Positions 474-62,944 of a stretch of 64,000 bases of DNA are shown here, one piece after another. The position numbers and the translations under genes are program-made. The stretch's first letter is position 1. Each line of letters starts with the position of its first letter. The stretch covers positions 11,139 through 75,138 of the forward strand of contig JAUSCZ010000042.1 of NCBI GenBank assembly GCA_030674475.1. The letters are read 5' to 3'. Below the pieces are notes generated by a model, which worked only from the letters and a program-made list of their open reading frames with translations, ran no database searches and was not told the DNA's origin. This DNA is from Candidatus Omnitrophota bacterium (lineage in GTDB: Bacteria; Omnitrophota; Gorgyraeia; Gygaellales; UBA12090).

Positions 474-591
474 ACCCGCTTCAATTTCATTGTCAGCTTG
501 ACTTTGGGGGGCAAGCGTTATAGTATATATAAGAAAGTAAAAAGGCAAAAGTAAAAAGGCAAAACTCTAGCTCTTAAACAGGGAGGAACTC

Positions 592-1956
592 ATGGCTAAA
601 AGCGCGTCATTATCTTCAAAAGGAATCAGGCATAAATTATTTACCGCTGTCTGCCTTATGTCCGTAATCCCTATTCTTGTCTGCCTTAATTTTGCTTTTC
701 CCAGCTTATTTGTAAGTTTTCTCTCTAAGACGAGCTTTAAGTTTATAATTTTAATAATGATTTCTATCTCTTTGCTTGGCTTTGTCTTAATTAAACAGAT
801 TATAGAGCATATTATCAGGATGGCCCGGGAGGTTAAGTCTATAGCTGAGGGTGATACGGATAAATATATTGAAATCAAAAGTGAAGATGAGATAGGCCAG
901 TTAGGCTCAGCCATAAATCAACTTACCGCCAGGATTAAGGAAAATCTGAATGAACTTGAAGATTATGGTTCAAAGACCGCCCAGATAAATATAGATATCC
1001 AAAAGAGGGTCGTGACTATGTCGGGGTTATTGCAGATTTCAAGCTTAATCACTAAAGGCGCCAAGCTGGATGATATTTTGCATCTTTGCGTGGAAAAACT
1101 CAAAAGCGTGGCGGATTCATCCGCGGCGTTTATTTTATTTTTAGATAGTAACGGTAAGATGGTGATGCGGGCCCAGACAGGCTTAAACGTGGAGTGCGGA
1201 GCGTCACTGGCTGAATCCGATGAATGTGTATCGCGGGTGTTTCAAGGCGGCGCTCTTACCGTTATTGATGCCAAGAACTTTAATGCTTCTTGCCTTAAGT
1301 TATTATCCCTCTTGAATATTAAAAATCTATTGTGTCTGCCTATTTATTTGGCGCATAAACCGGCGGCTATAGCCGGGGTAGGGAATAATATCCCTGATTT
1401 TATCTATAAGCGCGATGACCAGGAGTTGCTGGATATTTTCGTCAAGCAAATGGCTATTGCCATTGAAAGCGATTGGCTGACGGCTAAGGTGGAAGGCCTG
1501 GAGATCAAAGATATGCTTACGGGCTTGTATAATGAGCGTTATGTCCGCCACCATTTAGACGAGGAGATAAAGAGGGCGATAATTTATCAACGCCCGTGCG
1601 GTTTTGTCCTGGCCAGGATACAAAATTTTACTTCTTACCAGAAGCTGTATGGCCAGGTTGCCTCAGAATCTGTTTTTAAGAAAATTGCTTCTTCCTTGAG
1701 CGCTTCGTTCTCAGGCATAGAGAAAGTAGGGAGGTTCGCGGATTATGATTTTGCCGTAATCTTGCCGGAAAAGAACAAGCGTCAAGCCCAAAAAACAGCC
1801 GAAGAACTTCAGAAAAATGTGGAAACTCTTTTTCAAGATGAGCCGGTTAAAGATAAAAGACTGGGCATATCCATAGCGGTAGTTGAGAATCCTTTAGATG
1901 GAGTGGATTCGAATGAGCTCATATCCATTGCCCGGAATCTGCTGAATAATAAATAA
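592..1956 (+). CDS. Membrane-anchored HAMP-GAF-GGDEF-like signalling protein with a degenerate (AD-YDF) GGDEF motif, probably not catalytic
   Basis: Two N-terminal hydrophobic helices are followed by a HAMP-like amphipathic segment (IIEHIIRMAREVKSIAEGDTDKYIEIKSEDEIGQLGSAINQLTARIKENL). A GAF-like middle region comes next, then a C-terminal GGDEF fold (LTGLYNERY...RFADYDFAVILPE). RFADYDF sits where RxGGDEF should be and ARIQNF sits where the metal-binding DxDxF should be. Confidence 0.7.
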   Translation: MAKSASLSSKGIRHKLFTAVCLMSVIPILVCLNFAFPSLFVSFLSKTSFKFIILIMISISLLGFVLIKQIIEHIIRMAREVKSIAEGDTDKYIEIKSEDEIGQLGSAINQLTARIKENLNELEDYGSKTAQINIDIQKRVVTMSGLLQISSLITKGAKLDDILHLCVEKLKSVADSSAAFILFLDSNGKMVMRAQTGLNVECGASLAESDECVSRVFQGGALTVIDAKNFNASCLKLLSLLNIKNLLCLPIYLAHKPAAIAGVGNNIPDFIYKRDDQELLDIFVKQMAIAIESDWLTAKVEGLEIKDMLTGLYNERYVRHHLDEEIKRAIIYQRPCGFVLARIQNFTSYQKLYGQVASESVFKKIASSLSASFSGIEKVGRFADYDFAVILPEKNKRQAQKTAEELQKNVETLFQDEPVKDKRLGISIAVVENPLDGVDSNELISIARNLLNNK

Positions 1957-2044
1957 TTGCTATCAGCTGTCGGCTTTCAGCTTTCTGCTTTTTGCTGAGA
2001 GCTGAAAACTGCCGGCTGATGGCTTAAAAAAAGGATTATTCTTA

Positions 2045-2491
2045 ATGTCTGGCAAGAAGATTGTAAACAAAAAATTAGGTGAACTGTTAGTTGAAAAAGC
2101 GCTGGTTACCCAGGAACAGCTGGATGAGGCCTTGGAATTGCAAAAGGATAAAGGCGGCCTTATCGGGGAGATTTTGGTTGAGCTTAAATATACCACTGAG
2201 GATGATATCGCCAAAATGCTTACCGCCCAGTATGGTTTCGCTTATCTGCCGCTTTCTAATTACGAGATTGATCAGAGCCTGATCAATCTAATTCCTGAGC
2301 GGGTGGCCAGGCAGTATTGTCTTATCCCTATTGACAAAATAGGTACTAATTTAACCATAGCGATGAGTAATCCCTTAAACAGCCAAGCTGTGGAAGATAT
2401 GGAGACGCTTACTTCCTGCAGTGTGCAGACGTTTGTTTCTACTGCCTCCGACATAAAGCAGGCCATTGAGAGGTATTATAAAAACAAATAA
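2045..2491 (+). CDS. Stand-alone T2SSE_N / MshEN-like domain protein with no ATPase domain; candidate c-di-GMP receptor
   Basis: The 148 aa protein aligns with the N-termini of the PilB copies downstream. Two tandem ~24-residue motifs, KLGELLVEKALVTQEQLDEALELQ and LIGEILVELKYTTEDDIAKMLTAQ, resemble the MshEN consensus RLGxxLVxxGxIxxxxLxxALxxQ. Each motif has a glycine substitution. Confidence 0.65.
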   Translation: MSGKKIVNKKLGELLVEKALVTQEQLDEALELQKDKGGLIGEILVELKYTTEDDIAKMLTAQYGFAYLPLSNYEIDQSLINLIPERVARQYCLIPIDKIGTNLTIAMSNPLNSQAVEDMETLTSCSVQTFVSTASDIKQAIERYYKNK

Positions 2492-2561
2492 CTGCTTTCA
2501 GTCTTCTGCTGTCAGCTTTCTGCCGATAGCCGATAGCTGATAGCCGATAGCTGATTTAAAA

Positions 2562-4283
2562 ATGGCTTCTTTAAAAGAACGGATAGTCCAGATACTTATT
2601 CAAGATAAGCTGATTACTCAGGATAATCTTGAATGCGCTTTAAGAGTTCAGAAGGAAAAAGGAGGACAGCTTAGCGGAATTTTAACGGAACTGAAATTTG
2701 TTGATGAAAACAAGCTTCTGGCGGCTATGTCCAAAGTCTTCTCTAAGCCAAGTATTGACATAACTCGTTTCCAGATTGCTCCCGAGGTTTTAAAAATAAT
2801 CCCGCCTAATATCTGCCGGCAGTATCAAGTAATCCCGGTTTCCAAATTCGGCAGCGCCCTCACCCTGGCGATGGCTGACCCTATGAATATCCTCGCCCTT
2901 GATGACGTAAAGAGTCTGACCGGTTATCAGATAAATCCCATTATTGCCGATTCCCGCAAGATAACCCAGGCGATTAATCAATGCTATGGCGAGGTTTCCT
3001 CAAAATCGGTTATCGAAGGATTGATCCAGGGCATTTCAGCCGAAAATATAGAATTGATTGAAGATAGAGAAGAGGAAGCGATTTCTTCGGCTGAATTAGG
3101 CCGCCTTGTTCAGGAGGCCCCGATTGTTACCTTTGTCAACAAGGTATTTGAGCAGGCGGTTAATTTTAAGTCTTCGGATATTATGCTTGAGCCTCAGGAA
3201 AACAAACTGCGCGTTCGTTTTCGTATTGACGGTATGCTTAAAGAGCAGCCTGAATGCCCAAAAGAGATAAGCGCCCTTATTGTTTCGCGGGTTAAGGTTA
3301 TCTCGGGCTTAAATATCGCTGAGCATCGTCTTCCTCAAGACGGAAGATTTAAGATGAAAATCGGCTCCGGCGAGGTGGATTTCCGGGTTTCGGTGCTTCC
3401 TACTGTTTTAGGGGAGAAGGTAGTGCTGAGGATCCTGGATAAATCCCAGTTGAATCTGGATATTGAAAGGCTGGGTTTTCAGGAAAAAGCCCTTTCTGAA
3501 CTAAAAGAATGCGCTCTTAAGCCTTACGGGATGGTCCTGGCGACCGGGCCGACCGGAAGCGGAAAAACCACTACTTTATATTCTCTGATAAAATTAATTG
3601 ACCGCCCCAAGATTAATATCGTTACCGTTGAAGATCCGGTTGAGTTTCAGATTCCGGGGATAAACCAAGTGAATGTCCAGCCGGAGATAGGGCTTACTTT
3701 CGCCTCAGCCTTACGTTCCATCTTAAGGCAGGATCCCAATGTGATTATGATCGGCGAAATCAGAGATTCTCAGACGGTAGATATTGCCATAAAGTCCGCG
3801 TTGACCGGACATTTAGTTTTATCCACTCTGCATACCACGACTGCCTGCGGGGCAGTGGTGCGCTTAATGAATATGGGGATAGAGCCTTTTTTAATTAACT
3901 CGGCAATAAACTGTATCGCGGCCCAAAGATTGGCCCGGGTTCTTTGCTCGGACTGTAAGGAGAAATATGAACTTAAAGAAGATGTTGCCCTTAAGCTTAA
4001 ACTCACCGTCAGAGACAAGAAAGAGCCGTATATTTTTTTCAGGCCCAAAGGCTGTGGTAAATGTTTCCATACCGGGTATCGCGGGAGGGTAGTTTTGGCG
4101 GAGGTCTTGGTTTTGAGCCCTAAGATAAAGGAGCTGATTTTCAGCCGTTCCCAGGAGCACGCGCTAAAACAGGCCGCCAGGGCCGAGGGGATGCAGACCT
4201 TAAGGGAAGACGGCTTGTTTAAAGTCCGCAGCGGAGTAATTTCACTTGAAGAGATGCTTCGGGTGAGCGGGGGAGATGAGTAA
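2562..4283 (+). CDS. pilB: PilB/GspE-family type IV pilus / T2SS assembly ATPase, copy 1
   Basis: N-terminal MshEN-like motifs (RIVQILIQDKLITQDNLECALRVQ and LSGILTELKFVDENKLLAAM). Walker A GPTGSGKTTTLYS. His-box LTGHLVLSTLHT. C-terminal tetracysteine CSDC...CGKC. Confidence 0.9.
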   Translation: MASLKERIVQILIQDKLITQDNLECALRVQKEKGGQLSGILTELKFVDENKLLAAMSKVFSKPSIDITRFQIAPEVLKIIPPNICRQYQVIPVSKFGSALTLAMADPMNILALDDVKSLTGYQINPIIADSRKITQAINQCYGEVSSKSVIEGLIQGISAENIELIEDREEEAISSAELGRLVQEAPIVTFVNKVFEQAVNFKSSDIMLEPQENKLRVRFRIDGMLKEQPECPKEISALIVSRVKVISGLNIAEHRLPQDGRFKMKIGSGEVDFRVSVLPTVLGEKVVLRILDKSQLNLDIERLGFQEKALSELKECALKPYGMVLATGPTGSGKTTTLYSLIKLIDRPKINIVTVEDPVEFQIPGINQVNVQPEIGLTFASALRSILRQDPNVIMIGEIRDSQTVDIAIKSALTGHLVLSTLHTTTACGAVVRLMNMGIEPFLINSAINCIAAQRLARVLCSDCKEKYELKEDVALKLKLTVRDKKEPYIFFRPKGCGKCFHTGYRGRVVLAEVLVLSPKIKELIFSRSQEHALKQAARAEGMQTLREDGLFKVRSGVISLEEMLRVSGGDE

Positions 4284-5971
4284 TGGCTGTTTTTAAAGAA
4301 AGATTGACGGAGTTGTTAGTTACTCAAGGCATCCTTTCTAAGGAGAGGCTCCAGGAGGCCTTTGAAATTCAGAAGAAAAAGGCCGTTTCCTTAAGAGAAG
4401 TCTTGCTAAAAGAGGGCTTTGTTGATGAGGCCAAGCTCATTTCCGTATTGTCCGAGTCGCTTTATATACCTACCTTAAATTTATCCAACTACCGGATTGA
4501 CGCGTCTTTAGCCGAAGTTGTTCCGGAAAGGATGTCCCGCCAATATCACCTGGTGCCGATTTCCCGTATCGGCGATAATCTTACCGTGGCCATGGCTGAT
4601 CCTTTGAATATATTTGCTTTGGATGATTTAAGGCTTTTTACCGGACATAGAATAGAGCCGGTTATCGCTTTAGAGAAAGATATCCTTCTGGCTATAAATA
4701 GCGTCTACCGGCATAAGGAGCATAATGTTTCTTTATTGGAGCAAGAAAAGGAAGCCGGCGGCCGCCTCTCTCAAGATACGGTAGTCAAGGTGGATGATTT
4801 TAGAGATCAGACTAACGCCGCGCCGATTGTCAAGATTATTAATCTAATGATATTGGAGGCGCTCAAGAAGAGGGCTTCGGATATACATGTAGAGCCGCAG
4901 GAATTTGATGTGAGGATTCGTTACCGTATTGACGGTGAGTTGGCTGACGCCTTTAGAATACCCAAAAGCAACCAGAACGCGATAATTGCCAGGCTCAAAA
5001 TTATCTCAGGGCTGGATACCACCGAGACCCGTCTGCCGCAAGACGGCAGGTTTAAAATAAAATCCGCGGATAAGGAGGTTGATTTTAGGGTTTCCTCTCT
5101 TCCCACCAGCTTCGGCCAGAAGATGGTGCTGCGCATTTTAGATAAATCTTCTCTCTCTTTAGGCCTCCAGCGCCTGGGATTCTCGAGTCAGGCTAGGTCT
5201 GCTTTTAATGAGGTAATCCATAAACCCTATGGAATGATTTTGGTAACCGGCCCTACCGGAAGCGGCAAATCCACAACTCTGTATTCTGTCTTGAGCCAGC
5301 TGAACACCCCGGAAAAAAATATAATTACCATTGAAGACCCGGTTGAATATCAGCTTGCCGGGATTAGCCAGATTCAGGTTAATTCTGAAATAAGCCTGGA
5401 TTTTGCCTCGGGGCTGCGTTCTATTTTAAGGCAGAGTCCGGATGTGATTTTAATCGGTGAAATCAGGGACGGAGAAACTGCCGATATCGCGGTCAAGGCC
5501 GCTCTTACCGGGCATCTGGTCATGTCCACTTTGCATACCAATAACGCCAGTCAGGTTATCACCAGGTTGGTAGATATGGGTGTAGAGCCTTTTCTGGTTG
5601 CTTCCAGTTTAATTATGAGTTCGGCCCAGCGTCTGATACGGCTTATCTGCGCTCATTGTAAAGAGCCTGATAATGATGTCTCGCGGCCCATACTGAAGAG
5701 TTTAGGCCTCAGCCCGGATATCGCGCTGTTTCGCGGCCGGGGATGCCGTCTTTGCGGCAATACCGGATTTTACGGCAGAAACGCTTTGCTGGAAATTTTG
5801 ATGATTGATGATATAATAAAAGAAATGGTGGTAAAGGGTTCTTCCTCCCAGCAGATTGAAGATTACGCGGTTTCTAAGCTGGGTATGAAGACCCTGCGTC
5901 AGGAGGCCATAGACAAGGCCAAGGAAGGCTTAACTACCCTGGCGGAGGTGGTAAGGGTTACCGCGGAGTAA
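4283..5971 (+). CDS. pilB: PilB/GspE-family assembly ATPase, copy 2 (tandem paralog)
   Basis: Its start overlaps the stop of copy 1. N-terminal RLTELLVTQGILSKERLQEAFEIQ is a good MshEN match. Walker A GPTGSGKSTTLYS. LTGHLVMSTLHT. CAHC...CRLC zinc motif. Confidence 0.9.
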   Translation: MAVFKERLTELLVTQGILSKERLQEAFEIQKKKAVSLREVLLKEGFVDEAKLISVLSESLYIPTLNLSNYRIDASLAEVVPERMSRQYHLVPISRIGDNLTVAMADPLNIFALDDLRLFTGHRIEPVIALEKDILLAINSVYRHKEHNVSLLEQEKEAGGRLSQDTVVKVDDFRDQTNAAPIVKIINLMILEALKKRASDIHVEPQEFDVRIRYRIDGELADAFRIPKSNQNAIIARLKIISGLDTTETRLPQDGRFKIKSADKEVDFRVSSLPTSFGQKMVLRILDKSSLSLGLQRLGFSSQARSAFNEVIHKPYGMILVTGPTGSGKSTTLYSVLSQLNTPEKNIITIEDPVEYQLAGISQIQVNSEISLDFASGLRSILRQSPDVILIGEIRDGETADIAVKAALTGHLVMSTLHTNNASQVITRLVDMGVEPFLVASSLIMSSAQRLIRLICAHCKEPDNDVSRPILKSLGLSPDIALFRGRGCRLCGNTGFYGRNALLEILMIDDIIKEMVVKGSSSQQIEDYAVSKLGMKTLRQEAIDKAKEGLTTLAEVVRVTAE

Positions 5972-5989
5972 GGGAACGCAGAGAAAAAT

Positions 5990-7054
5990 ATGAGCCAGGG
6001 CAGAATATTATTAATCTCAGACAGTCAATTAATGAATAAGGCCTTGGTAGAAATACTAGCCAATAGGGATTATGAAACGGTTATTTCTGTTGATAGCGGC
6101 TCTGCCTTAAGGTATTTGGATAATGATTTTGATTTGGTTATTTTAAGATGCGGCCTCAGTGCCTGTGATATAAAGAATTTTGTTCAGGATCTCATTGTCA
6201 GGGATTCGTCGCTGGTGATACTGCTTATGGTGGAAGACAGCGATTTTGATTTAACCAGAGAATTTCCCACCAGCGGTATCTTTGAGACAGTAAGGTTCCC
6301 CATACATAATGTCGAAAGTTTTGCTTTTCTGGTAAAGACAGCCTCTCACGCGCATTCCTCAATCGTTTCATATAAAAGGATACTATTGAGCCTGGAGGAG
6401 CGTAACTCTTCTTTACAGAAGCAGAATATGCTTCTGGCTAACCGGGTTGAGGAATCAAGTAAAAACTTAGGGCGTATGTATGAAGATCTGCGTAAAACCT
6501 ACGTGCATACGGTTAAATCTTTAATTGAGGCGATTGACGCCCGGGACCATTATACCCGAAGCCACTCCGAGAAGGTGTCCCGCCGCGCGGTTTTGATTGC
6601 CGAGGAGATGGGGTTATCGGTAAAAGAAATAGAGACGATACGCCAGGCAGGAGAATTGCATGATGTGGGCAAAATCGGCATCGAGGATAGTATTTTAACT
6701 AAACCCGCAGCGCTTAATGATGAGGAATGGGTGAAGATGAGATTACATTCAATTAAAGGCGCCCAAATTCTAGAGCCGCTTACCTTTTTGGGCGATGTAG
6801 CTTCGATTGTCCGCCAGAATCATGAACGTTACGGCGGCGGCGGTTATCCTGACGGCCTCAAAGGCGAAGAGATTGCCCTGGGGGCAAGGATAATCAGCCT
6901 TGCCGACGCCTATGATGTTATGACTTCAATAAGAAGTTACCGCAAGGATGTTTTTAGCAAAGAGCAGGCAATTGAAGAAGTAAAACGTAATTCGGGAAAA
7001 CAATTTGATCCTAAAGTGGTCGAGGCATTCTTAAGGATAGCGGATAAATTCTAA
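5990..7054 (+). CDS. HD-GYP c-di-GMP phosphodiesterase with an N-terminal degenerate (pseudo) receiver domain
   Basis: The C-terminal half carries HYTRSH...LHDVGKIGI...HERYGGGGYPDGL, i.e. HD plus GYP. The N-terminal ~120 aa has a receiver-like fold, but the phospho-acceptor position reads DLVILRCGL, with Arg where Asp is expected. Confidence 0.8.
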   Translation: MSQGRILLISDSQLMNKALVEILANRDYETVISVDSGSALRYLDNDFDLVILRCGLSACDIKNFVQDLIVRDSSLVILLMVEDSDFDLTREFPTSGIFETVRFPIHNVESFAFLVKTASHAHSSIVSYKRILLSLEERNSSLQKQNMLLANRVEESSKNLGRMYEDLRKTYVHTVKSLIEAIDARDHYTRSHSEKVSRRAVLIAEEMGLSVKEIETIRQAGELHDVGKIGIEDSILTKPAALNDEEWVKMRLHSIKGAQILEPLTFLGDVASIVRQNHERYGGGGYPDGLKGEEIALGARIISLADAYDVMTSIRSYRKDVFSKEQAIEEVKRNSGKQFDPKVVEAFLRIADKF

Positions 7055-7055
7055 A

Positions 7056-8258
7056 ATGTCAGTCTATAAATATAGCGCCAAAAATAAAAACTCTGAAAGC
7101 GTAGAGGGAACATTAGAGGCCGGATCTCAGGCTGAAGCGGAGAATATTCTGCACTCTAAAGGCTTGCTGATTGTTTCTTTAAAAAATATCCCGGACAGGC
7201 AGTTAAAGAAAACCCGGGATAGGAAAGTTTCCCTTGATGCCCTGGTGATTTTTTCCCGCCAGCTGGCTACTATGATTGACAGCGGCATAACCCTGGTCGC
7301 GGCCTTAGAGATACTTAAAGACCAGATAGACGACCGCGCGCTCTGCGCTATAATTTCCAAGATATACCGCGATGTGCAGGAGGGAAAAAGTTTTTGCGAT
7401 TCTACGGCAAAATATCCCGCCGCTTTTTCTGATTTTTATATCAATATGATTAAGGCCGGAGAGGCCTCCGGAAGGCTGGATGAGGTCCTGGAAAGGCTGG
7501 CGGTGTTTCTGGAGAAGACCGCCGCCCTAATCAGAAAGGTGCAGTCAAGTTTGGTGTATCCGGCGGTTATAATAACCATGGCTATTTCTATAACCGTATT
7601 TTTGATGATAAAAGTTGTCCCTACCTTTAAGGGTATTTTTGCTACCTTAGGGGGTGAATTACCGGTTCCGACGCAGATATTAATTCTCGCCAGCGATACT
7701 TTAAAAAATTATTTTTTATTCATTCTGATTGCTTTGGGGGTGTTATCATTTTTACTGCGGCGTTACATCAAGACTCCTTCCGGAAGACGAATGTTCGATA
7801 AGCTTACTTTAAAAGTTCCCATATTCGGGCCTCTTTTTCTTAAGGCGGCGGTGGCCAGATTTGCCCGGACTTTTTCTACTTTGGTAAAAAGCGGCGTGCC
7901 TATCTTGAATACCTTAGAGATCGTTTCCAAAACTGCCGGGAATAAAATAATCGAACAGGCGGTGGAAAACGCCCGGCAGGCAATCCGTCAGGGTGAACCT
8001 TTGTATCAGCCTTTAGATAAAGCCAATGTTTTTCCGGCAATGGTAATCAGGATGATCAAGGTTGGCGAGCAGGCCGGAGAGCTGGAGAAGATGCTTTCCA
8101 AGATAGCCGATTTTTATGAAGAGCAGGTGGATGTCGCGGTAAGCAGTATGACCAGCCTGATTGAGCCTTTAGTGATTGCCGTTTTGGGTATACTTATCGG
8201 CGGAATTGTCCTGGCTCTTTTCCTTCCTATATTTAAAATAACCACATTGATAGGTTAA
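7056..8258 (+). CDS. pilC: PilC/GspF inner-membrane platform protein
   Basis: 400 aa with the typical GspF-family duplicated cytoplasmic domains, an N-terminus of the pattern YKYSAKNKNSESVEGTLEA..AEAENIL..GL, and three TM segments. Confidence 0.9.
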   Translation: MSVYKYSAKNKNSESVEGTLEAGSQAEAENILHSKGLLIVSLKNIPDRQLKKTRDRKVSLDALVIFSRQLATMIDSGITLVAALEILKDQIDDRALCAIISKIYRDVQEGKSFCDSTAKYPAAFSDFYINMIKAGEASGRLDEVLERLAVFLEKTAALIRKVQSSLVYPAVIITMAISITVFLMIKVVPTFKGIFATLGGELPVPTQILILASDTLKNYFLFILIALGVLSFLLRRYIKTPSGRRMFDKLTLKVPIFGPLFLKAAVARFARTFSTLVKSGVPILNTLEIVSKTAGNKIIEQAVENARQAIRQGEPLYQPLDKANVFPAMVIRMIKVGEQAGELEKMLSKIADFYEEQVDVAVSSMTSLIEPLVIAVLGILIGGIVLALFLPIFKITTLIG

Positions 8259-10372: not shown

Positions 10373-11386
10373 TTATTTCTTGACCGGGGTTTTCTCTTTT
10401 AGGAAGTAGTTTTTGTCTTTCTTGATATTTTGGATAGCATGCTCCGGGACTTTAAACACCTGATTTTCCGGAGTGATCTTCACGTAATAGGCCTTTTCTT
10501 TTTCTAGATAATTTCCCACCTCAATAGCAAGAGTCTTTTTCTCATCGCTTTCAAGCGCAAGGTTGAAATTATCTTGTCCAAAGCCGTAATCAGTAAGGCT
10601 GGGGTTAAGCGCGTCCTGGGCAAAGATATTTGAGGCATTTTGCAGGAAGCTGTCTATTTTGCCTGAGTCAATTTCAACTTTTTTCACCGCCGGTTCAAAA
10701 TCCCAATTATATTTAGCATCGAATTCCTTCTTTTTGACCAGGGTGAATAGGTTTTTACCCTTTCGCGATGTTTCTATTTTTTCTATTTTTTTAGGGTCAA
10801 AAGAAAGCAGTTTAAAATCAGTGAAATAGTTATTGTCTAATTTTGCCTCTTTATTATAGATATTAAGCCGGCCCGGGATGTCCTTTAGGGTGAGAATAAT
10901 CTTCTCTGAATCTTTAAGCCTGAGGAAGCTGCTGTCCCAGCCAGGTTTATCAGGAGACACAATGATATGGGCTAAAGTTTTCGCGTCCTGGGCCTCTAAG
11001 ATGATATGGATGCCTTGAGTATCTTCCAGGTAAAAATCTCCGAATACCGATTTTGATTCCGCGCGCAGTTCCCCTTTTAAGCCGGATAAATCCTTGAGCA
11101 GGTTTTCCACATTTTCCTTCCTGGCCCTGACATTGAACTTATTTTCTATCCTCCAGTTGTCGGTGTCGTCTTTTAGCAGGATAATTTTATTCTTTTCATC
11201 GTCGCCTCTGTAAATGGTTATTTTCCGGATAAATCCTGCTGCCAAATCTTGCGTCAAAGTAAACGGCCGGGAAGCCGCGATTTCTTCCTGAACAAGCTGT
11301 TTCTTGGTAACGTTGTTTTTGATCAAGGCCAGAGCCGTAAGAAGCGATACTATGGCTACGAGGATAATAAGTTTTTTTAATTTCAT
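10373..11386 (-). CDS. DUF4340-like protein, the usual partner of GldG-type ABC systems; N-terminal signal/anchor
   Basis: N-terminal hydrophobic segment MKLKKLIILVAIVSLLTALAL. The gene sits immediately downstream of the GldF/GldG fusion, which is the position DUF4340 usually occupies. The family assignment is from memory. Confidence 0.5.
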   Translation of the reverse strand: MKLKKLIILVAIVSLLTALALIKNNVTKKQLVQEEIAASRPFTLTQDLAAGFIRKITIYRGDDEKNKIILLKDDTDNWRIENKFNVRARKENVENLLKDLSGLKGELRAESKSVFGDFYLEDTQGIHIILEAQDAKTLAHIIVSPDKPGWDSSFLRLKDSEKIILTLKDIPGRLNIYNKEAKLDNNYFTDFKLLSFDPKKIEKIETSRKGKNLFTLVKKKEFDAKYNWDFEPAVKKVEIDSGKIDSFLQNASNIFAQDALNPSLTDYGFGQDNFNLALESDEKKTLAIEVGNYLEKEKAYYVKITPENQVFKVPEHAIQNIKKDKNYFLKEKTPVKK

Positions 11387-13863
11387 TTCGCGTTCCCCAG
11401 CAGATAAAATTGTTTTTCTTTCCCGCGCAAAAACAGGCGCAGCGATCCATAAAAAACCAATAAAATCGGCACCAGGAATATCGCGATGAATTTATACCAG
11501 GCCTTCTGAGGGTTAGTCAATTTCTTCAGCTCGCGGCTGGTGAGGGTGTTGGAGCGGATTTGGATAATATCGGTCCCCAGGGTAAGGCCGTCAACGATAT
11601 TGGCAAAGAGATTAAGGTTCCCCGCGCCGCTTATAAGCTGGTCGGTAAACATCTTGGAACAGCCGACGATAATTAGCTTGCCGGGTTTAGGAGTAAGCGC
11701 GGGGACTGCCTCCTGATTTTGGGCGGGAGTTTGAGTATCCTGGTTTGGCCACTGGGGAATAGATTGAAAGGTATCGCTGAAATTCCCTTCTAACATTACG
11801 GCTAAGGGAAACGCGCCTTCGGGATTGCTTTTAGGAAAGGTTAAGAGCTCTTTTTTTAGATTGGAGCCGTCGGATGGCGCCTTCCAGCTTCTTTTGCTTG
11901 AGCTAAACATCAGGGTTTCTTTTAGATTCGCGGTTTTTAAGGCGTCTTCAGATATTTCCAGGGCTGAGCCCCACATAAAAAAAAGCGACGGCAGGCGGTT
12001 CATCAGAGGCATATCTGGACGCATCATTTCAGTGGTTACTAATATCTGATTAGGCACCTTGATCGGCATAGATAAGGCGAAGGGGCCGACCCGCTGGCCG
12101 GTGGTAACTTCAATTATCTGACTGCTTTCATCCATCAGCATTTCATCGTTAATCTTGACTCCCCATTTTTGAATCAGCCGGTTGATATCTAAATCCGCCT
12201 TTTTAGGGCTGATCTCTATCCCTTGAGTGCCTCCGCTTTGAAACGCGTATTCAAGGCCCTGGGCAGCGATCAGGGCCGCGCCTCCCTGAGCCAGGAATTT
12301 GTTGATTTCATAAAGCTGTCTGTCGTTGAGCTTCCCGGGGTTAAGGATTAACAGGGTGTTCAGGTCGCCGGTAATCGGGTCGTCTTTAGTCAGGCCGATT
12401 CGTTTCACGTTGTAGCCGTTATTACGCATCAGGGGGATAACGGTTTTATATTCATCCTCGTAGCGGCTTTCGGACTCTGTCATCCCTTGAATGAGGCGGT
12501 TTATTTCCGGGTTTAGTCCCTCGTTTTTAAGAGGAGAGAAAAGGGCGATATTGGGTTTTTTCTCCCGGGTTAATTTAGCGATTCTGGAGAGTATGAGATA
12601 CTCCAGGTCAGGGATGTCCCGGGGAGTGAGCCGGGGGAGGATCTCTTCATTTTTTTCTTTATAGGCGATGGTGATGGCCGAGTAAATCAGCTTGAGGCCA
12701 ACCTCGTCCTTATCAATGCTTTCTACCTGGAAAGGAAGCACACCTTTGTCCTGGAGTTTTTTCTCTAATGAGCCGGTTGTGTCTGAAGATTCTCCCGGGT
12801 TCTGATTTTGCTCTATCAGGTTTGAGGCTTCAATATGAAAGATTTTGTAATTAAGCTTATTATTAGAGATGATTTTCAGTTCCTCGAGCTTCCCGGAAAT
12901 ATCCTGCTCTATGGTTTTAAGCGCGGTGGGCATTTTGTCCTGAGGGCTGATGTAGAGGCTCAGGGAAACCGGCACCTTCAGCTCCCGGAGCATCTTCCGG
13001 GAAACTAAAGAGGTGGTATAGATTTTAGTCTCAGTAATATCAAATCTTCCTAAGCGCAGGTCGTGGATCAGCCAGTTAAAGATGATGAGGCCGATAATAG
13101 ACACAATTACGCTCAAGCTAAATACCGCTTTGGCCTTGGGCCTGAGCCTGCCCTCAAAATAAAAGCCATTGAGGATGAGGAATACGGATATTGCCGCGGT
13201 AAAATAGAGGATGTCCTTAATGCTGATAACGCCCTTGCTGAAGCTGATTGTATGGCTGGCGGTGCCTATATAATTTTTGATAAATGTTCCCAGTCCGCCA
13301 ATCCAGCCGTCAATAAAGGCGGCAAAAAAGTCTGTGCCTAAGAAGAAAAAAAGAAAACAACTTAAGGTGGTCAGCACAAAGGCGACAATCTGCTCTTTGG
13401 TGAGTCCGGAAATGAATATTCCTATAGCAAGGAAAAGCGCTCCGGTAAGAAACGAGCCTAGATAGCCGCCGATAATTGCTCCGCTATCGGGTGAGCCGGC
13501 GGCAGATAAAATTATCGGGATGGTTATGGTGCTTAAAAGGGCCAGAGAATAAAATATCAGGCTGGCTAAGAATTTCCCCAAAACTAACTCCCGCGGCTTC
13601 ATCGGAAAGGTCATCAGGAGCTCAAAGGTATTTTCTTTCTTATCCTCGGCCCACAGCCGCATAGTAACGGCCGGGATAAAAACAAAGAGGATGGTGGGCA
13701 GGCTGTCAAAATAAAGCCGCATATCGGCCCTTCCCAGAAGAAAAAAGCGGGTCATAAATAATCCGTTATTGATGGCCAGGAATACAATCAGGTAGATATA
13801 GGCGATACCAGAGTTAAAATATGAGCTAAGTTCCCTTTTAAGAATAGTCCAGATGTTTCTCAT
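11383..13863 (-). CDS. Fused ABC-2 type permease (GldF-like) and GldG-like auxiliary component
   Basis: 826 aa. The N-terminal ~250 aa are a polytopic ABC-2 permease. The remainder is a large periplasmic Gldg-type domain with a C-terminal TM helix. The gene overlaps the ATPase gene upstream by 4 nt. Confidence 0.7.
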   Translation of the reverse strand: MRNIWTILKRELSSYFNSGIAYIYLIVFLAINNGLFMTRFFLLGRADMRLYFDSLPTILFVFIPAVTMRLWAEDKKENTFELLMTFPMKPRELVLGKFLASLIFYSLALLSTITIPIILSAAGSPDSGAIIGGYLGSFLTGALFLAIGIFISGLTKEQIVAFVLTTLSCFLFFFLGTDFFAAFIDGWIGGLGTFIKNYIGTASHTISFSKGVISIKDILYFTAAISVFLILNGFYFEGRLRPKAKAVFSLSVIVSIIGLIIFNWLIHDLRLGRFDITETKIYTTSLVSRKMLRELKVPVSLSLYISPQDKMPTALKTIEQDISGKLEELKIISNNKLNYKIFHIEASNLIEQNQNPGESSDTTGSLEKKLQDKGVLPFQVESIDKDEVGLKLIYSAITIAYKEKNEEILPRLTPRDIPDLEYLILSRIAKLTREKKPNIALFSPLKNEGLNPEINRLIQGMTESESRYEDEYKTVIPLMRNNGYNVKRIGLTKDDPITGDLNTLLILNPGKLNDRQLYEINKFLAQGGAALIAAQGLEYAFQSGGTQGIEISPKKADLDINRLIQKWGVKINDEMLMDESSQIIEVTTGQRVGPFALSMPIKVPNQILVTTEMMRPDMPLMNRLPSLFFMWGSALEISEDALKTANLKETLMFSSSKRSWKAPSDGSNLKKELLTFPKSNPEGAFPLAVMLEGNFSDTFQSIPQWPNQDTQTPAQNQEAVPALTPKPGKLIIVGCSKMFTDQLISGAGNLNLFANIVDGLTLGTDIIQIRSNTLTSRELKKLTNPQKAWYKFIAIFLVPILLVFYGSLRLFLRGKEKQFYLLGNAK

Positions 13864-14807
13864 GATTGTTTTGGTTCTGTTTTTTTAAAAAGCCCCAGGA
13901 AAACTTCCTCCAGAGAAGGCTCTTGAGGGGAGAGTTCTTTTAGGATCCAGTTTTTTTCTTTAACCACCTGATTAATTGCCCGGAGGAATTCTTCGCCGGA
14001 CTTTGCCCGGCATTGAAATCTTACCGTATGCAAAGCCTCTTCAATAAAACTGAAGCTTTCCAGCGCGGCTATTGTTTTAAACGCGGATTCTATTTCCTGG
14101 CGATTTGCCTGGATGGAGACCAGGAAGTTATTATTTACGCTTTTGCCTTTTTTTAGCTCATTCGTGGTGCCCTGGGCAATAATCTGTCCCTGGTCAATTA
14201 TCAAGAGCCGGTCAGCCACCGCCGATGCCTCTTGCAGGATGTGGGTGGAGAAGATTATGGTCTTTTCCCGGGCTAAGTCCCGGATGAGTTTACGGATGCC
14301 GATAATCTGCATTGGGTCAAGCCCGGAGGTGGGTTCATCCAGGATTACTACCTGGGGGTCATGGATAAGGGCCTGAGCTAAGCCTACTCTTTGCCGGTAG
14401 CCTAAAGATAATTCAAAAATCGTATGCTTATAGACTTTGCGGATTTGGGTGGCTTCGATTACCCATTCTTTCCTTTCTTTAAGTTTTGTTGAGGAAAGGC
14501 CCCGCGCGCGCCCCACGAAATCCAGGTATTCGTCTACCCGCATATCTATGTAGAGAGGAGGGTTTTCCGGAAGATAGCCAAGCATCCTTCTTGCCGCCAG
14601 GGGGTTTTCGGTGATATCGTAGCCGCAGATTGAGGCTGTTCCTTTGCTGGGGTAGATAAAGGTGGTCAGGACGCGCATCAAGGTGGTCTTGCCCGCGCCG
14701 TTAGGGCCAAGCAAACCGATGACTTCTTTTTCGTTGGCCCGGAAAGAAACATTGTCTAGGGCGCGGGTGGCGCCGTAATACATAGTAAGATTTTTGGCTT
14801 CTATCAT
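13860..14807 (-). CDS. ABC transporter ATP-binding protein (GldA-like)
   Basis: Walker A GPNGAGKTT. Signature LSLGYRQRV. Walker B ILDEPTSGLD. C-terminal extension typical of GldA/CcmA-like ATPases. Confidence 0.9.
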   Translation of the reverse strand: MIEAKNLTMYYGATRALDNVSFRANEKEVIGLLGPNGAGKTTLMRVLTTFIYPSKGTASICGYDITENPLAARRMLGYLPENPPLYIDMRVDEYLDFVGRARGLSSTKLKERKEWVIEATQIRKVYKHTIFELSLGYRQRVGLAQALIHDPQVVILDEPTSGLDPMQIIGIRKLIRDLAREKTIIFSTHILQEASAVADRLLIIDQGQIIAQGTTNELKKGKSVNNNFLVSIQANRQEIESAFKTIAALESFSFIEEALHTVRFQCRAKSGEEFLRAINQVVKEKNWILKELSPQEPSLEEVFLGLFKKTEPKQS

Positions 14808-26103: not shown

Positions 26104-28200
26104 ATGGATTTCTTTAATCTTTCCAGCATTATCAAAAAAGACCCGGATAAGGTCTTTATCGTTAATTATGCCCCGGTTTTTGCCCGGCTTAGCGAGTCCG
26201 AGAAAAATTTGATAATGCAAAAAAGCAAAGTCGTAGAATATGCCAAAGGGGATATTATCTATAGACAAGGAGATATTCCTACCGCTTTCTATTGCGTTAT
26301 CAGCGGCAGAATCAGGGTTTTCATTAAGCCTCCAGACCGGACTGAGGAGACCCTGGAGTATCTTAACTGCGGACGTTACTTTGGGATGATTTCTTCGCTT
26401 TTAGGAGAGAATCATTCGGTAAGCGCCCAGGCGGCTAACGACTCTAAGATTTTAGAGATCACCCCGGAGGATTTTCGCGGCATCTTAAATAACGCCCCGC
26501 GCTTAGCCATTGACATCAGTCACACCTTGTCCCGCCGGCTTAAGAAAAAAGATCAGGCTGAGAAGAAGATTTTTGAAAGCAACATCATCTCGGTTTTCGG
26601 CATATCCGCTAATACCGGATGCGCGGCCTACGCGGCGAATCTGGCCTTAAGCCTGAAGAAGGAAACCAAGAAAGATGTCCTGCTGATAAATGTGGCCTCA
26701 GCTAAAGACCAGCTTTACCGTGATTTTGACTCTGTTGATGGCGCCTCCAGCGGCCCCGGCGGCTTATGGATGGTTAAACTGGATTCTCCGCTTCCCCCGG
26801 AGGAATCTTTAAATAGCGCGATATCGGAAGATGCCTTTTCCGGGGTGAAATTGGTCAACGTTATCTACGACAGTTCAAGCGCTTCTTATGTCAGCAGATT
26901 TAACGCCTTTCTGACCTATTTTACCGGAAGCTATCACTACATAATCGTTCAACTGCCGCCTCTGGTTGAAGACGCGGTTTTTAACGCCCTCAACCAGTCC
27001 GACTCTGTTCATTTGCTGAGTAACTGCGATGCTAACAGTTTAGGGAAGACAAAATCCCTTTTGTTTGATTTATCTCAGAAGGTAAGCTCGGCCCAGGAAA
27101 AAGTAAGCTTGATTCTGGCCCGGCATCAGCAGGGCGGAGAGCCTTCTTGCGAGGAGATCGCCTCTTCTTTAAAGCATAGTATTTATGCATCCTTGCCGGC
27201 CCTGGATGAGGTTTACCGGAAAATAGGCAAGCCAACCAAAAGGATTGTAACCGAGTATATTGAATTAGAGTATTCCCGCTCAGTTCGGAGAATTGCCCGG
27301 GAAATAGGAGGTATTCGGGTGGGCCTGGCCCTGGGCAGCGGGGCGGCCTACGGCCTGGCTCATATCGGGGTAATCAAGGTTTTAGAGAAGGAAAATATCC
27401 AAATAGATATGATTGCCGGCTCTAGTATGGGGGCGCTGGTCGGGGCATTGTGGGCCTCAGGCTTAAACAGCTCGGAAATTCAGAATATGCTGATGGAGTA
27501 TAACAATAACCGCCTTAAGGCCTATGGCCTTTTGATTGACCTCTGCTTTCATAAAATGTCCCTGGCCAAGGGCAATAAAATCCGCAGGTTTTTAGAGAAG
27601 CACATCGGAAATAAAACCTTTCAGGATGTTAAGCTTCCTTTGCGGGTGGTTGCTTGTAATATCACTAAACGCCAGGAGGTTATTTTTAACAGCGGCAGAA
27701 TTGTGGACGCGGTGATGGCTAGTATCGCGATCCCGGCTGTCTTTGCCCCACAGGTTATTGGCGGTGATTTGATTATTGACGGAGGAATAATTGAGCCGGT
27801 GGCAGTGGGAACGCTGGTAAAGATGGGTATAAATAAGATAATCGCGGTGAATGTCCTGCCCAGTCCCGAGAGTATGGCGCGCAGCCATGAGTTCAAACAA
27901 CTGCTGAAACAGAAAGAAAGAGAAAAGGCGGGGAAAGGGAGTTTTCTGGACAAACTTTCTTATCAATTTCAATCCGGTCTTAACCGGATGTTTTTTCCGA
28001 ATATCTTTGATATTATCGTAAATAGTATGCAGACAATGGAATACGCCATTGCCGAGGCCGACTGTCAGAGGGCCGATGTCCTGATCAGTCCGGTAGCCTT
28101 GGGCGTGGAATGGTTTGATTTCTTCAGGATAGAGGAGCTGATCAAGATAGGGGAATATGAGGCAATTAAGTCTCTGGCTAATATCAAGAGTATTTTTTAA
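26104..28200 (+). CDS. Cyclic-nucleotide-binding domain protein fused to a degenerate ParA/MinD-like middle domain and a C-terminal patatin-like phospholipase
   Basis: The N-terminal CAP-type cNMP-binding fold is at ~30-150 aa. The middle region (ISVFGISANTGCAAYAANLALSL) resembles a ParA/CpaE P-loop but lacks the GKT. The C-terminus is patatin: GLALGSGAAYGLAHIGV (GxGxxG), AGSSMGA (GxSxG), IIDGGI (DGG). Confidence 0.8.
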   Translation: MDFFNLSSIIKKDPDKVFIVNYAPVFARLSESEKNLIMQKSKVVEYAKGDIIYRQGDIPTAFYCVISGRIRVFIKPPDRTEETLEYLNCGRYFGMISSLLGENHSVSAQAANDSKILEITPEDFRGILNNAPRLAIDISHTLSRRLKKKDQAEKKIFESNIISVFGISANTGCAAYAANLALSLKKETKKDVLLINVASAKDQLYRDFDSVDGASSGPGGLWMVKLDSPLPPEESLNSAISEDAFSGVKLVNVIYDSSSASYVSRFNAFLTYFTGSYHYIIVQLPPLVEDAVFNALNQSDSVHLLSNCDANSLGKTKSLLFDLSQKVSSAQEKVSLILARHQQGGEPSCEEIASSLKHSIYASLPALDEVYRKIGKPTKRIVTEYIELEYSRSVRRIAREIGGIRVGLALGSGAAYGLAHIGVIKVLEKENIQIDMIAGSSMGALVGALWASGLNSSEIQNMLMEYNNNRLKAYGLLIDLCFHKMSLAKGNKIRRFLEKHIGNKTFQDVKLPLRVVACNITKRQEVIFNSGRIVDAVMASIAIPAVFAPQVIGGDLIIDGGIIEPVAVGTLVKMGINKIIAVNVLPSPESMARSHEFKQLLKQKEREKAGKGSFLDKLSYQFQSGLNRMFFPNIFDIIVNSMQTMEYAIAEADCQRADVLISPVALGVEWFDFFRIEELIKIGEYEAIKSLANIKSIF

Positions 28201-30729: not shown

Positions 30730-30999
30730 TAAAAAATTACCAAAAGGAGACAGGAAAACCTGGAGCCAAATAATTTGGTAAAAATAGTGGAAGAAAAAAC
30801 CACAGCAGTTGACAATACCGGATAGATATTGAAGGACGAATAAGCGCCTTTTTAAAGATAGATAAAAGCGCTCATAGATTTGTCTGAGCGCTTTTTTTGT
30901 TTCTTTAGAGAGCTAAAAAGATAAATTTCAATCGTTCTTTGAGAATTAAATAGCCAAGCCCACTCGTCCCGGCATTATGCCGGGCAAAGAGCTTTATTT

Positions 31000-32578
<1,579 letters not shown>

Positions 32579-32799
32579 AAAATTTTTTGGCTGTGCCAAA
32601 GATATTTTAGAATAATGTTTTAGGTTGATAGTCTAAAGCTATTAACTATTTTTAATCAGACTCGCGATAATAGGCTTTATCGTTTGGAGCTTGGCTATTT
32701 TTTATTTAACGCGAATAGACGCGGAAACTACGGGTTCGTGATTCGTGATTAGTGATTCGTGATTCAAGAACGAACCACGATACACGAACAACGAAATGC

Positions 32800-32876
32800 G
32801 GGCCCATAGCTCAGTTGGTTAGAGCACAGCCCTGATAAGACTGGGGTCAGTGGTTCGAATCCACTTGGGCCCACCA
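32800..32876 (+). tRNA. tRNA-Ile (anticodon GAT)
   Basis: gggcccatagctcagttggttagagcacagccctgataagactggggtcagtggttcgaatccacttgggcccacca. Cloverleaf is intact and CCA is encoded. Confidence 0.9.
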
Positions 32877-32989
32877 AATTTTTGCTGTGCGAAAATTTGG
32901 TAGAGCAATTGAAAATTGAACAATAGAACAAATAGAACATAATAGCTTCAGCTGCGTTCTATTTTCTATTGCTCTATTGCTCAAGACTC

Positions 32990-33062
32990 GGGGCAGTAGC
33001 TCAGCTGGGAGAGCGTCTGATTTGCATTCAGAAGGTCGGGAGTTCGAGCCTCCTCTGCTCCA
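32990..33062 (+). tRNA. tRNA-Ala (anticodon TGC)
   Basis: ggggcagtagctcagctgggagagcgtctgatttgcattcagaaggtcgggagttcgagcctcctctgctcca. The G3:U70 identity pair is present. CCA is not encoded. Confidence 0.9.
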
Positions 33063-33303
33063 CTTAAATTTTCCTTGTCGGAAAATTTAAGTGGATACTG
33101 AGCAAGCGTAAGCGGCACGACAGAGTGCCTGAGCTGAGTCGAAGTATCTTCCCCTATAAAATATAATACTAATAGTAAAACATACATTTTCTTCGCGGCC
33201 AGTCCCGCGATTGGATGTTCTTTGACAACTTAATATAATCAAGTAACAAGGAGTCTTTTCGAAAGAGAAGATTCGGGTAACAATTTGCCAAATAGAATTA
33301 AAA

Positions 33304-36288
<2,985 letters not shown>

Positions 36289-36439
36289 TATAACGTATAG
36301 CGTGTAGCGCGCAGCGTATAGGAAACTATCCGCTCAGCGCTGCACGCTAAACGCTAAAACATGATATAGGTTTAGTCTGTTTTATAAATGTTGTAAGTGT
36401 TATTCTGCTTGATTATACAAAGTTGTCTTATGAAAATTC

Positions 36440-36556
36440 GGAGCATTCTTACCGGAGGGGCCACACCCGTTCCCATTCCGAACACGGTAGTTAAGACCTC
36501 CAGGGCCGATGGTACTTTAGTAGTAATGCTATGGGAGAGTAGGACGATGCTCCGGC
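36440..36556 (+). rRNA. rrf: 5S ribosomal RNA
   Basis: ggagcat...ccgaacacggtagttaag...atgctcc terminal helix. About 117 nt. Confidence 0.85.
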
Positions 36557-62941: not shown

Positions 62942-62944
62942 CTA

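Follow-up and report, generated by a model that had tools for sequence, protein, structure and literature searches.

Here we describe a block of six co-oriented genes (592-8258, + strand) in a 64,000-nucleotide (nt) stretch of contig JAUSCZ010000042.1 from a Candidatus Omnitrophota bacterium (assembly GCA_030674475.1); this whole stretch is called the window below. In order, the genes encode a GGDEF-domain protein, a stand-alone MshEN protein, two PilB-type ATPases (PilB1 and PilB2), a receiver-like HD-GYP protein and a PilC-type platform (PilC1). The block recurs in much of the phylum Omnitrophota. With modest confidence, and going by the encoded proteins, we read it as the motor-and-control operon of a type IVa-pilus-like machine with two motors, in which cyclic di-GMP (c-di-GMP) would be sensed in trans by the stand-alone MshEN protein. 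The gene content agrees with an earlier reading of this DNA (the original prediction), which had described six tightly spaced genes. A check of the open reading frames (ORFs) returned all six at identical coordinates, separated by 88, 70, -1, 18 and 1 nt, and Pfam hidden Markov model searches recovered HAMP, GAF, GGDEF, MshEN, T2SSE, HD_5/HD and T2SSF, with Response_reg staying below threshold.

The closest loci are found in Omnitrophota metagenome-assembled genomes (MAGs; L001, 97%, and L002, 99%), and homologues of the stand-alone MshEN protein carry Omnitrophota names. The original prediction had named synteny in related genomes as a check on its interpretation, and the same six-gene order (GGDEF, stand-alone MshEN, PilB, PilB, receiver-like HD-GYP, PilC) is present in L001, L002, L092, L093 and L094. 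The last three represent further Omnitrophota lineages, with HD-GYP proteins 71%, 51% and 49% identical to that of the window, respectively. A five-gene order that lacks the HD-GYP gene is seen in L081, L087 and L088, and the contigs of L083 and L086 agree with it as far as they reach (to within or just past PilB2). Identities of the block proteins in syntenic loci are about 50-70% and go down to about 40-55%; between the window and L081 they are 75% for the stand-alone MshEN protein, 70% for PilB1 and PilB2, 69% for PilC and 50% for the GGDEF protein. The recurrence of the gene order at such diverged identities shows that the arrangement is not due to chance. The loci lacking the HD-GYP gene (L081, L087 and L088) had suggested that it is an insertion private to near-identical relatives, an idea rejected because the HD-GYPs of L092, L093 and L094 (49-71% identical) occupy the same slot.

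Every sampled Omnitrophota locus with a PilB block has a GGDEF-protein orthologue 5' of its stand-alone MshEN gene. In L003, a MAG labelled Planctomycetales, the GGDEF gene is absent and the order is stand-alone MshEN, PilB1, PilB2, second stand-alone MshEN and PilC. This second copy (L003 11678-12106; 142 aa, 44% identical to that of the window) sits between PilB2 and PilC, which is the HD-GYP slot in the window, and accessory regulators thus seem to accumulate in the PilB2-PilC slot.

Two of the loci show the block together with filament genes. In L087 it is directly followed by pilin genes, a PilX-like gene, PilM and PilO. L089, a locus linked to Omnitrophota only loosely (synteny; MreB 65-69% identical), has a version with one PilB, after which come genes for a PAS kinase, a sigma-54 regulator and pilins. 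The pilin genes directly after the block in both loci indicate the motor operon of a type IVa-like pilus of its own rather than an accessory module. The original prediction had favoured the latter, that is, an accessory ATPase module that has no filament of its own and acts in trans on a pilus or pseudopilus cluster at 52.6-64 kb (given there as 55-64 kb). We now regard this as improbable. It is true that neither pilins nor PilMNOP nor a secretin adjoin the block in this genome, that no pilin, prepilin peptidase or secretin was found within 1-16 kb of the window, as the original prediction had said of the locus, and that pseudopilins and PilM-N/PilO lie 50 kb away. However, the distal cluster (52665-63863) is equipped with a motor and platform already. 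It encodes a PAS histidine kinase, two receivers, PilB3, PilC2, three N-methyl pseudopilins (one of them GspG-like), a 362-aa protein, a PilM-PilN fusion (61364-62941), PilO and a T2SSC/B-like protein. PilB3 passes the NCBI GspE cut-off (647 vs 630) and fails the PilB cut-off, and the best match of PilC2 is GspF, so that the cluster may be type II secretion system-like rather than a pilus, as far as these family assignments go. Moreover, extension ATPases are generally system-specific (PMC11656802). The orthologous blocks of L087 and L089 are contiguous with their own pilins, plus PilM/PilO in L087, and the L087 pilin, PilX and PilM match the window genes at 58-63 kb at only 24-41% over partial lengths, in contrast to 55-57% for PilB1, PilB2 and PilC. 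This weak match makes service to the distal cluster the less likely option, and for the same reason the notion that the 58-63 kb pilins are the block's own is not supported. The pilins and the alignment subcomplex served by the block are probably encoded elsewhere in the genome.

The two motors are PilB1 (2562..4283, + strand; 573 aa), a full-length PilB/GspE-type ATPase, and PilB2 (4283..5971, + strand; 562 aa), a full-length PilB-type ATPase whose start codon shares 1 nt with the stop codon of PilB1; Pfam finds MshEN and T2SSE in both (T2SSE at 452 and 443 bits, respectively). They are 43% identical to each other, and each is 42-45% identical to PilB3 (55733-57430). In a neighbour-joining tree, a distance method used here without bootstrap support, the 'first' PilBs of all loci group in one orthologous clade and the 'second' PilBs in another, with PilB3 placed elsewhere and the PilTs as outgroup, indicating that the pair is ancient. 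A recent tandem duplication is therefore rejected, given the separate clades and the 43% identity of the copies. The order is kept even by the truncated ATPases of L091, the first being PilB1-like (54%) and the second PilB2-like (50%). In that locus (L091 10422-13221) the PilB1-like ATPase (397 aa) lacks the N1 domain altogether and the PilB2-like ATPase (530 aa) lacks the MshEN_N half, with a stand-alone MshEN gene and a gene for a 1333-aa GGDEF-AAA_16-HEAT protein upstream of the ATPases and beta-helix/depolymerase-like genes downstream.

Retained in both clades are Walker A and Walker B (the latter with its catalytic Glu), the Asp and His boxes, the arginine fingers (RxPQDGR) and the zinc site (CxxC...CxxC); several PilB2 orthologues have TGQ instead of TGH in the His box. 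Judged by these motifs, PilB1 and PilB2 are catalytically intact, and they are encoded back to back with a single platform. On the type IVa PilB model TIGR02538 they score 646 and 627 bits, below the equivalog cut-off of 675.65. Neither is an orthologue of TfpB, a candidate rejected on model NF053534 (436 and 449 bits vs a cut-off of 850). PilT and PilU proteins were recognised by a length of about 350 aa, the lack of an N1 domain and of the zinc tetracysteine site, and a score >319 on TIGR01420; PilB2 reaches 194 bits against that cut-off of 319 and has both the N1 domain and the zinc site, and was therefore rejected as a PilT or PilU. The statement that the ATPases are both PilB-type and not a PilB/PilT pair is thus borne out. 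The platform, PilC1 (7056..8258, + strand; 400 aa), is a polytopic protein of about 400 aa with two T2SSF repeats (Pfam, two stretches, 211.7 bits), whose best NCBIfam match is the Thermus-type PilC (414 bits, under the equivalog cut-off). Presumably PilB1 and PilB2 both hydrolyse ATP and act on PilC1.

PilB1 and PilB2 might alternatively have different jobs or serve different filaments, either as extension and retraction motors, with PilB2 replacing PilT, or with one working on a pilus and the other in DNA uptake or secretion. In many of the loci sampled from other phyla the order is PilB-PilT-PilC, hence PilB2 occupies the usual PilT slot of a common operon; there is no PilT gene in the 64 kb window, and the PilB2 clade often has TGQ for TGH. 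Nevertheless, the N1 domain, RxPQDGR and zinc tetracysteine site of PilB2, its score on the PilT family and the presence of only one platform gene in the block make such a division of labour very improbable in our estimate.

The best candidate for a c-di-GMP sensor in the locus, by its motif and predicted fold, is the stand-alone MshEN protein (2045..2491, + strand; 148 aa), in which Pfam recognises MshEN only (77 bits), as expected of the free-standing domain previously proposed as a detached sensor and here put forward as a sensor or adaptor. Its 53-residue tandem c-di-GMP motif (aa 10-62; 2072..2230, + strand) has the 24+5+24 register, composed of KLGELLVEKALVTQEQLDEALELQ (aa 10-33), the spacer KDKGG (aa 34-38) and LIGEILVELKYTTEDDIAKMLTAQ (aa 39-62). 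We used the tandem-motif consensus of PMC5013675, with the extended first position (R/K/L) of PMC11731258. The contact residues (K10-L11-G12, L26, L30 and Q33 in the first half; L39-I40-G41, I55, L59 and Q62 in the second) are near-invariant in the family, and the turn position of motif I is A19, permitted by the relaxed motif. The extended consensus (R/K/L)LG... arose from GSPII-B of Thermus PilF (K167 and L196), the tightest MshEN-type binder known, with a dissociation constant (KD) of 6 nM (PMC11731258). K10 and L39 correspond to these two residues, and PilF is also the best sequence match in the PDB.

Scores on NF053729, the NCBIfam model of the 53-residue c-di-GMP motif (cut-off 38), point in the same direction: 64.2 bits over model positions 1-53 for the window protein, 48-72 bits for its orthologues and 60-69 bits for canonical single PilBs (L009, L062, L070 and L079). 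Among the matches listed, 120 relatives are 57-100% identical to the window protein; 100 of these 120 have two hG..Q half-motifs, as the window protein does, and none has zero. The AlphaFold2 model (pLDDT, the per-residue confidence score, 86.7) has four N-terminal helices followed by a beta/alpha unit, and its top PDB match in Foldseek is 5HTL, that is, MshE bound to c-di-GMP (TM-score 0.79-0.84, root-mean-square deviation 2.3 A, 139 columns). Other Foldseek matches are 7LKM and 4PHT, which represent PilB-PilZ and GspE-GspL docking. Taken together, the motif score, both half-motifs and the match of the model to nucleotide-bound MshE argue for a candidate detached sensor, and the stand-alone MshEN protein would be expected to bind c-di-GMP.

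Such free-standing domains are not confined to this block. A library search gave 22,300 MshEN-type matches, and of the best 150 cluster representatives about 40 are no longer than 180 aa and hence stand-alone. We also observed a variant of 212-221 aa with a duplicated MshEN_N motif unit (L087 10001-10639; P0023, P0031, P0041, P0045, P0080 and others), which matches NF053729 in two stretches (105 bits) and has four hG..Q half-motifs; going by these repeats it might bind two c-di-GMP molecules.

The N-terminal domains of the ATPases look different in this respect. Each PilB had been said to carry its own MshEN domain, and this holds for the fold, which Pfam recognises in both, but as a description of a sensor it is overstated because both motif glycines are lost. 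At motif position 3, where the backbone amides of the glycine read guanine O6/N7, window PilB1 has V9 and S38 (RIV..., QLS...) and PilB2 has T9 and R38 (RLT..., SLR...). The replacements run throughout the two clades (V/K/I/Q/T and S in PilB1; T/L/I/A and R/V in PilB2), and the second Gln is lost too. XpsE reportedly lost binding through several key changes that include G11V, G40L and Q61V (PMC5013675). The motif alignment called for by the original prediction has therefore a split outcome: the ligand-contact positions are kept in the stand-alone protein and both glycines are lost in the N-termini of PilB1 and PilB2. On NF053729, PilB1, PilB2 and PilB3 score 41.5, 40.2 and 31.6 bits, respectively, and orthologues range from 41 to 64 in the PilB1 clade and from no match to 49 in the PilB2 clade. 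Half-motifs, counted with the pattern hG..hh(9)h...h..Q, are absent from all 15 PilB ORFs that adjoin a stand-alone MshEN gene (15/15). Binding of c-di-GMP in cis by the PilB1 and PilB2 N-domains seems unlikely from these residues, with some PilB1 orthologues as the likelier exception, and the half-motif pattern fits the idea that sensing was handed over to a separate MshEN protein.

The GGDEF protein (592..1956, + strand; 454 aa) consists, by Pfam and hydropathy, of a membrane-spanning N-terminus followed by HAMP (nt 787-939), GAF (nt 1066-1467) and an inactivated GGDEF domain (nt 1510-1947). We interpret its hydrophobic N-terminus (aa 12-75; nt 625-816) as a pair of membrane helices joined with hardly any external loop. 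The signature was described before as degenerate, and indeed it reads ADYDF (aa 383-387; 1738..1752, + strand). Orthologues have GECGF, DNNEF, GDDEF, SDTEF, SDYEF, VDYGF or GDNEF at this place, and 9/9 of the Omnitrophota orthologues examined are degenerate. The window protein has Arg at the position of PleD D327 and Gln at that of N335, in an alignment with a PleD reference sequence entered by hand. All orthologues checked lack the guanine-binding Asn, and the window protein and most orthologues also lack the metal-binding Asp (L086 and L087 keep DID). We took RxxD five residues upstream of the signature as the I-site, and it is absent in all orthologues examined; the window has SGIE, the others have TGIE, SEID, TEVD, GEIE or SDVE, and Arg is never present. 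A receptor role of the PelD type, based on the I-site, is thus rejected, as RxxD is missing and no PelD match was obtained among PDB sequences. With neither the catalytic residues nor the I-site, the GGDEF protein would by known criteria neither make nor bind c-di-GMP, and its listing among the c-di-GMP components of the locus is not supported.

The situation is different in two distant loci. L089 (RYGGDEF with RRYD) and L091 (RYAGDEF with REKD) keep DID and KxxND and encode intact-looking cyclases, whose gene lies directly upstream of the stand-alone MshEN gene and overlaps it by 4 nt. The conserved unit accordingly comprises the GGDEF protein, the stand-alone MshEN protein and one or more PilB-type ATPases. 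In the clade of the window, the cyclase appears to have decayed while the position of its gene was kept.

The HD-GYP protein (5990..7054, + strand; 354 aa) combines a receiver-like region (nt 6005-6292) with an HD-GYP domain (nt 6518-7018) matched by Pfam HD_5/HD; Response_reg stays sub-threshold at 20.9 bits vs a cut-off of 30.2. The receiver had been said to lack the phospho-acceptor Asp, and we find Arg53 (nt 6146-6148) at that position and SD in place of the acidic pair DD. Family-wide (119 relatives) the phospho-acceptor position holds K, R, Q, N or E, mostly a positively charged residue and never D. Judging from this distribution, it is an old pseudo-receiver of the whole family and not a recent loss. 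For the catalytic domain we aligned the window protein to PmGH (4MCW) and to 118 relatives (family proteins P0295-P0414; counts below are given for 119 relatives). The window protein keeps H192, H224-D225, K228, H253, H278, E279, G-Y-P and D306, and H189, HD, K235, H250, H277, E, GYP and D305 are invariant in the 119 relatives. Tyr is found at the position of PmGH E185 in 118/119 members, which places them in the binuclear rather than the trinuclear class, and the complete binuclear catalytic set is present in 114/119. The previous suggestion that this protein keeps c-di-GMP low locally stands in part, since the catalytic set kept in the family makes a local phosphodiesterase role plausible.

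In mechanistic terms, we propose that the block encodes the cytoplasmic and inner-membrane part of a pilus machine, in which c-di-GMP sensing would have moved from the PilB N-domains, with their guanine-reading glycines lost, to a free-standing MshEN protein with the full tandem motif in its K/L form. Loaded with c-di-GMP, this protein would dock on one or both ATPases or else on the platform, thereby licensing or biasing pilus assembly, by analogy with the cis-acting MshEN of MshE and with FimX-PilZ on the Xanthomonas PilB N-domain. The upstream GGDEF protein may represent an ancestral local cyclase that fed the sensor and still looks active in the distant L089 and L091. In the clade of the window the dead protein would probably serve as a membrane anchor for the sensor or the HD-GYP protein and relay a cue sensed by GAF, a step that has parallels in the reported cyclase-independent role of GGDEF in the Xanthomonas RpfG complex and in the cyclase-MshEN pairing of NfrB. 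Part of the phylum also has the pseudo-receiver HD-GYP, whose probable role is to reduce c-di-GMP in its vicinity or to work via protein contacts. A canonical PilZ protein encoded elsewhere in the window (49762-50124, - strand; 120 aa; RxxxR as RSFPR and DxSxxG as DVSGGG) indicates that the organism plausibly uses c-di-GMP. A single-domain receiver gene with a normal DD...D signature (49361-49747, + strand) adjoins the PilZ gene. A bolder version of the scheme, which we consider rather unlikely, would make PilB1 and PilB2 an obligate pair on one PilC, either as a hetero-oligomer or as alternating extension and retraction motors that work without PilT, switched by a diffusible MshEN protein belonging to a large class of trans-acting c-di-GMP adaptors, with the dead GGDEF protein as its membrane dock.

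Several observations weigh against trans sensing by the stand-alone MshEN protein. Motif II of the window protein has K48 followed by Tyr-Thr and thus fails the relaxed pattern [GAS]hh of Wang et al.; in addition, the guanine-contacting MshEN_C Asp of MshE and PilF is replaced by Asn109, which is invariant in the 41-sequence family alignment. N-domains with the MshEN fold are also known as pure protein-docking modules (PilB-PilZ and GspE-GspL; 7LKM and 4PHT). As for the ATPases, window PilB1 and PilB2 pass the NF053729 cut-off marginally, and some PilB1 orthologues match the scores of the stand-alone proteins. Motif loss is moreover common in general: among 77 PilBs without a neighbouring stand-alone MshEN gene, 46 have no half-motif, 14 have one and 17 have two. 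The 15 adjoining PilBs come from two clades only, so that the complementarity between sensor and PilB does not count as statistically independent evidence. The 64 kb window itself yielded no active cyclase. In the HD-GYP protein, Asn277 takes the place of the metal ligand H276 of PmGH, a position that holds His in 114/119 relatives and Asn in the window and its closest relatives, and the Asp of DGxGYP is Gly in the window and its nearest relative P0295 (NHERYGGGGYP, nt 6818-6850). These two substitutions make the activity of the window HD-GYP uncertain.

An alternative is a scaffold that is independent of c-di-GMP, in which the GGDEF, MshEN and HD-GYP proteins act on the motors through protein contacts only. 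The stand-alone MshEN protein would then serve as an adaptor or, as a decoy N-domain, compete with the PilB N-domains for the platform. This is the main rival of the sensing operon, as it keeps the same contacts and removes the nucleotide, and we hold it to be a real though minor possibility. It agrees with a GGDEF protein that is dead and has no I-site, with the pseudo-receiver of the whole HD-GYP family, with the H-to-N change at the metal ligand in the window, and with the docking of MshEN-fold domains to PilZ and GspL. It also has a precedent in Xanthomonas campestris, where an HD-GYP::GGDEF::PilZ complex reportedly regulates PilT/PilU independently of enzyme activity and c-di-GMP binding (PMC3749722), although some of the RpfG papers on Xanthomonas have been retracted. 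On the other hand, a scaffold does not readily explain why the stand-alone family keeps the G, L, L and Q contacts near-invariant in both halves and scores on NF053729 like canonical c-di-GMP-binding PilBs (60-72 vs 60-69 bits), why the binuclear set is complete in 114/119 HD-GYP family members, or why the stand-alone MshEN protein is paired with an intact-looking cyclase in distant loci. We retain the motor-and-control operon with trans sensing as our working interpretation.

The tight spacing of the six genes, together with a promoter-like site ahead of them, suggests that they are co-transcribed. The site (TTGACT-17-TAGTAT, 498..526, + strand) is a consensus match only, located in the 118-nt gap 5' of the first gene, which also holds a GGGAGG ribosome-binding site, and constitutes weak evidence, as such sites are not much more frequent in the region than in shuffled sequence. 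Counts of intrinsic terminators and promoters within the block were likewise near those of shuffles and uninformative. Rfam detected no c-di-GMP riboswitch or other RNA element in the block, its matches in the window being rRNA, tRNA and transfer-messenger RNA (tmRNA) only.

The block is flanked by a radical-SAM gene on the 5' side and by UvrD, a GldG-like ABC system and IspH on the 3' side. The window begins inside the radical-SAM gene (3' end, 3-473), which is 61% identical to its L081 counterpart. The usual 5' neighbours of the block are mreB-mreC-mreD-pbp2-rodA (L081, L084, L086, L088, L093, L094 and the distant L089), plus the radical-SAM gene in Omnitrophota, while L003 has rodA only. 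Relative to the order in L081 and L088, the window contains an insertion between UvrD and IspH (10373-14807, - strand), consisting of DUF4340, a GldG-like ABC_transp_aux/ABC-2 fusion (826 aa) and an ABC ATPase. Other features of the window are a gene for a 698-aa protein with a cyclic-nucleotide-binding domain and a patatin-like phospholipase (26104-28200, + strand), which follows a beta-oxidation set (thiolase, enoyl-CoA hydratase/3-hydroxyacyl-CoA dehydrogenase and acyl-CoA dehydrogenase), a complete rRNA operon (30998-36555; 16S, two tRNAs, 23S and 5S) and a tmRNA gene (52024-52457) with smpB adjoining (51410-51868).

Omnitrophota are ultra-small, uncultivated and probably host-dependent bacteria, and type IVa pili are considered central to the way they attach to other cells or prey on them (PMC10066038). 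The block offers a concrete control circuit for such a machine and would be a natural case of a c-di-GMP-sensing domain split from its assembly ATPase, with a partner cyclase that decayed to a scaffold. It bears on two open questions of pilus biology, namely the role of the N1/MshEN domain of PilB and the need for two extension-type motors (PMC11656802). In the literature searched we did not find the combination of a free-standing MshEN sensor, two adjacent PilBs with decayed motifs, a fossil cyclase and a pseudo-receiver HD-GYP, kept phylum-wide beside elongasome genes, nor tandem PilBs or stand-alone MshEN in Omnitrophota. The Omnitrophota genome literature searched gave no mention of PilB or c-di-GMP, and no discussion of stand-alone MshEN proteins was found in the c-di-GMP and pilus literature searched.

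The stand-alone MshEN protein aligns over its full length with the MshEN region of Escherichia coli NfrB (NF008411 positions 482-619). NfrB is said, in work by Junkermeier and Hengge from 2021, to be a precedent for a cyclase paired with a locally acting MshEN receptor. The gene pair of GGDEF and stand-alone MshEN in L089 and L091 suggests the same local arrangement. NfrB differs, however, in being a glycosyltransferase with a C-terminal MshEN fused to the effector and a polysaccharide output, and in the clade of the window the GGDEF partner is dead.

Among pilus systems, Vibrio cholerae MshE, Myxococcus xanthus PilB and Clostridium perfringens PilB2 are alike in ATPase family and N-terminal MshEN fold, the stand-alone MshEN protein has the same 24+5+24 motif, and c-di-GMP is the presumed input to extension (PMC5013675, PMC11656802). 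Compared with such cis sensing of the MshE type, here the motif resides on a separate 148-aa polypeptide and the ATPase N-domains lack both glycines. Thermus thermophilus PilF has three GSPII/MshEN domains, of which A is non-binding, B binds with 6 nM and C with about 0.5 uM (PMC11731258). As in PilF, several MshEN-type domains of unequal competence would serve one motor, the stand-alone protein having the K/L first residues of GSPII-B, but instead of being contained in one chain they are spread over three proteins, one competent-looking and two degenerate.

The FimX-PilZ-PilB system of Xanthomonas and Pseudomonas likewise has a degenerate MshEN-fold N-domain on PilB and receives its c-di-GMP information in trans via a docking receptor (PMC8389850). 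There the receptor is a degenerate GGDEF-EAL protein with a PilZ adaptor, whereas the candidate receptor here is MshEN and the GGDEF protein has neither EAL nor an I-site. In Xanthomonas campestris, RpfG (REC-HD-GYP, a receiver joined to HD-GYP), GGDEF and PilZ proteins form a complex in which, as here, an HD-GYP, a GGDEF and a small receptor-type protein converge on pilus motors, and the role of GGDEF is reportedly independent of cyclase activity (PMC3749722). In the present block, unlike in that complex, these proteins share one operon with the motors, the receiver is unphosphorylatable, MshEN takes the place of PilZ, and the motors are PilB-type and not PilT/PilU. Finally, Acinetobacter baylyi needs two phylogenetically distinct PilB-type ATPases, PilB and TfpB, in one type IVa system (PMC11656802), but PilB1 and PilB2 are adjacent, in places translationally coupled, and their pairing is kept across much of a phylum. 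The domains and regulatory principles of the block are hence all precedented, by cis-acting MshEN, trans-acting FimX-PilZ, the multiple MshEN domains of PilF, HD-GYP/GGDEF complexes on motors and the two motors of A. baylyi. What the block adds is a new wiring of known parts rather than a new kind of system, and it represents a neat natural experiment with no surprise of principle.

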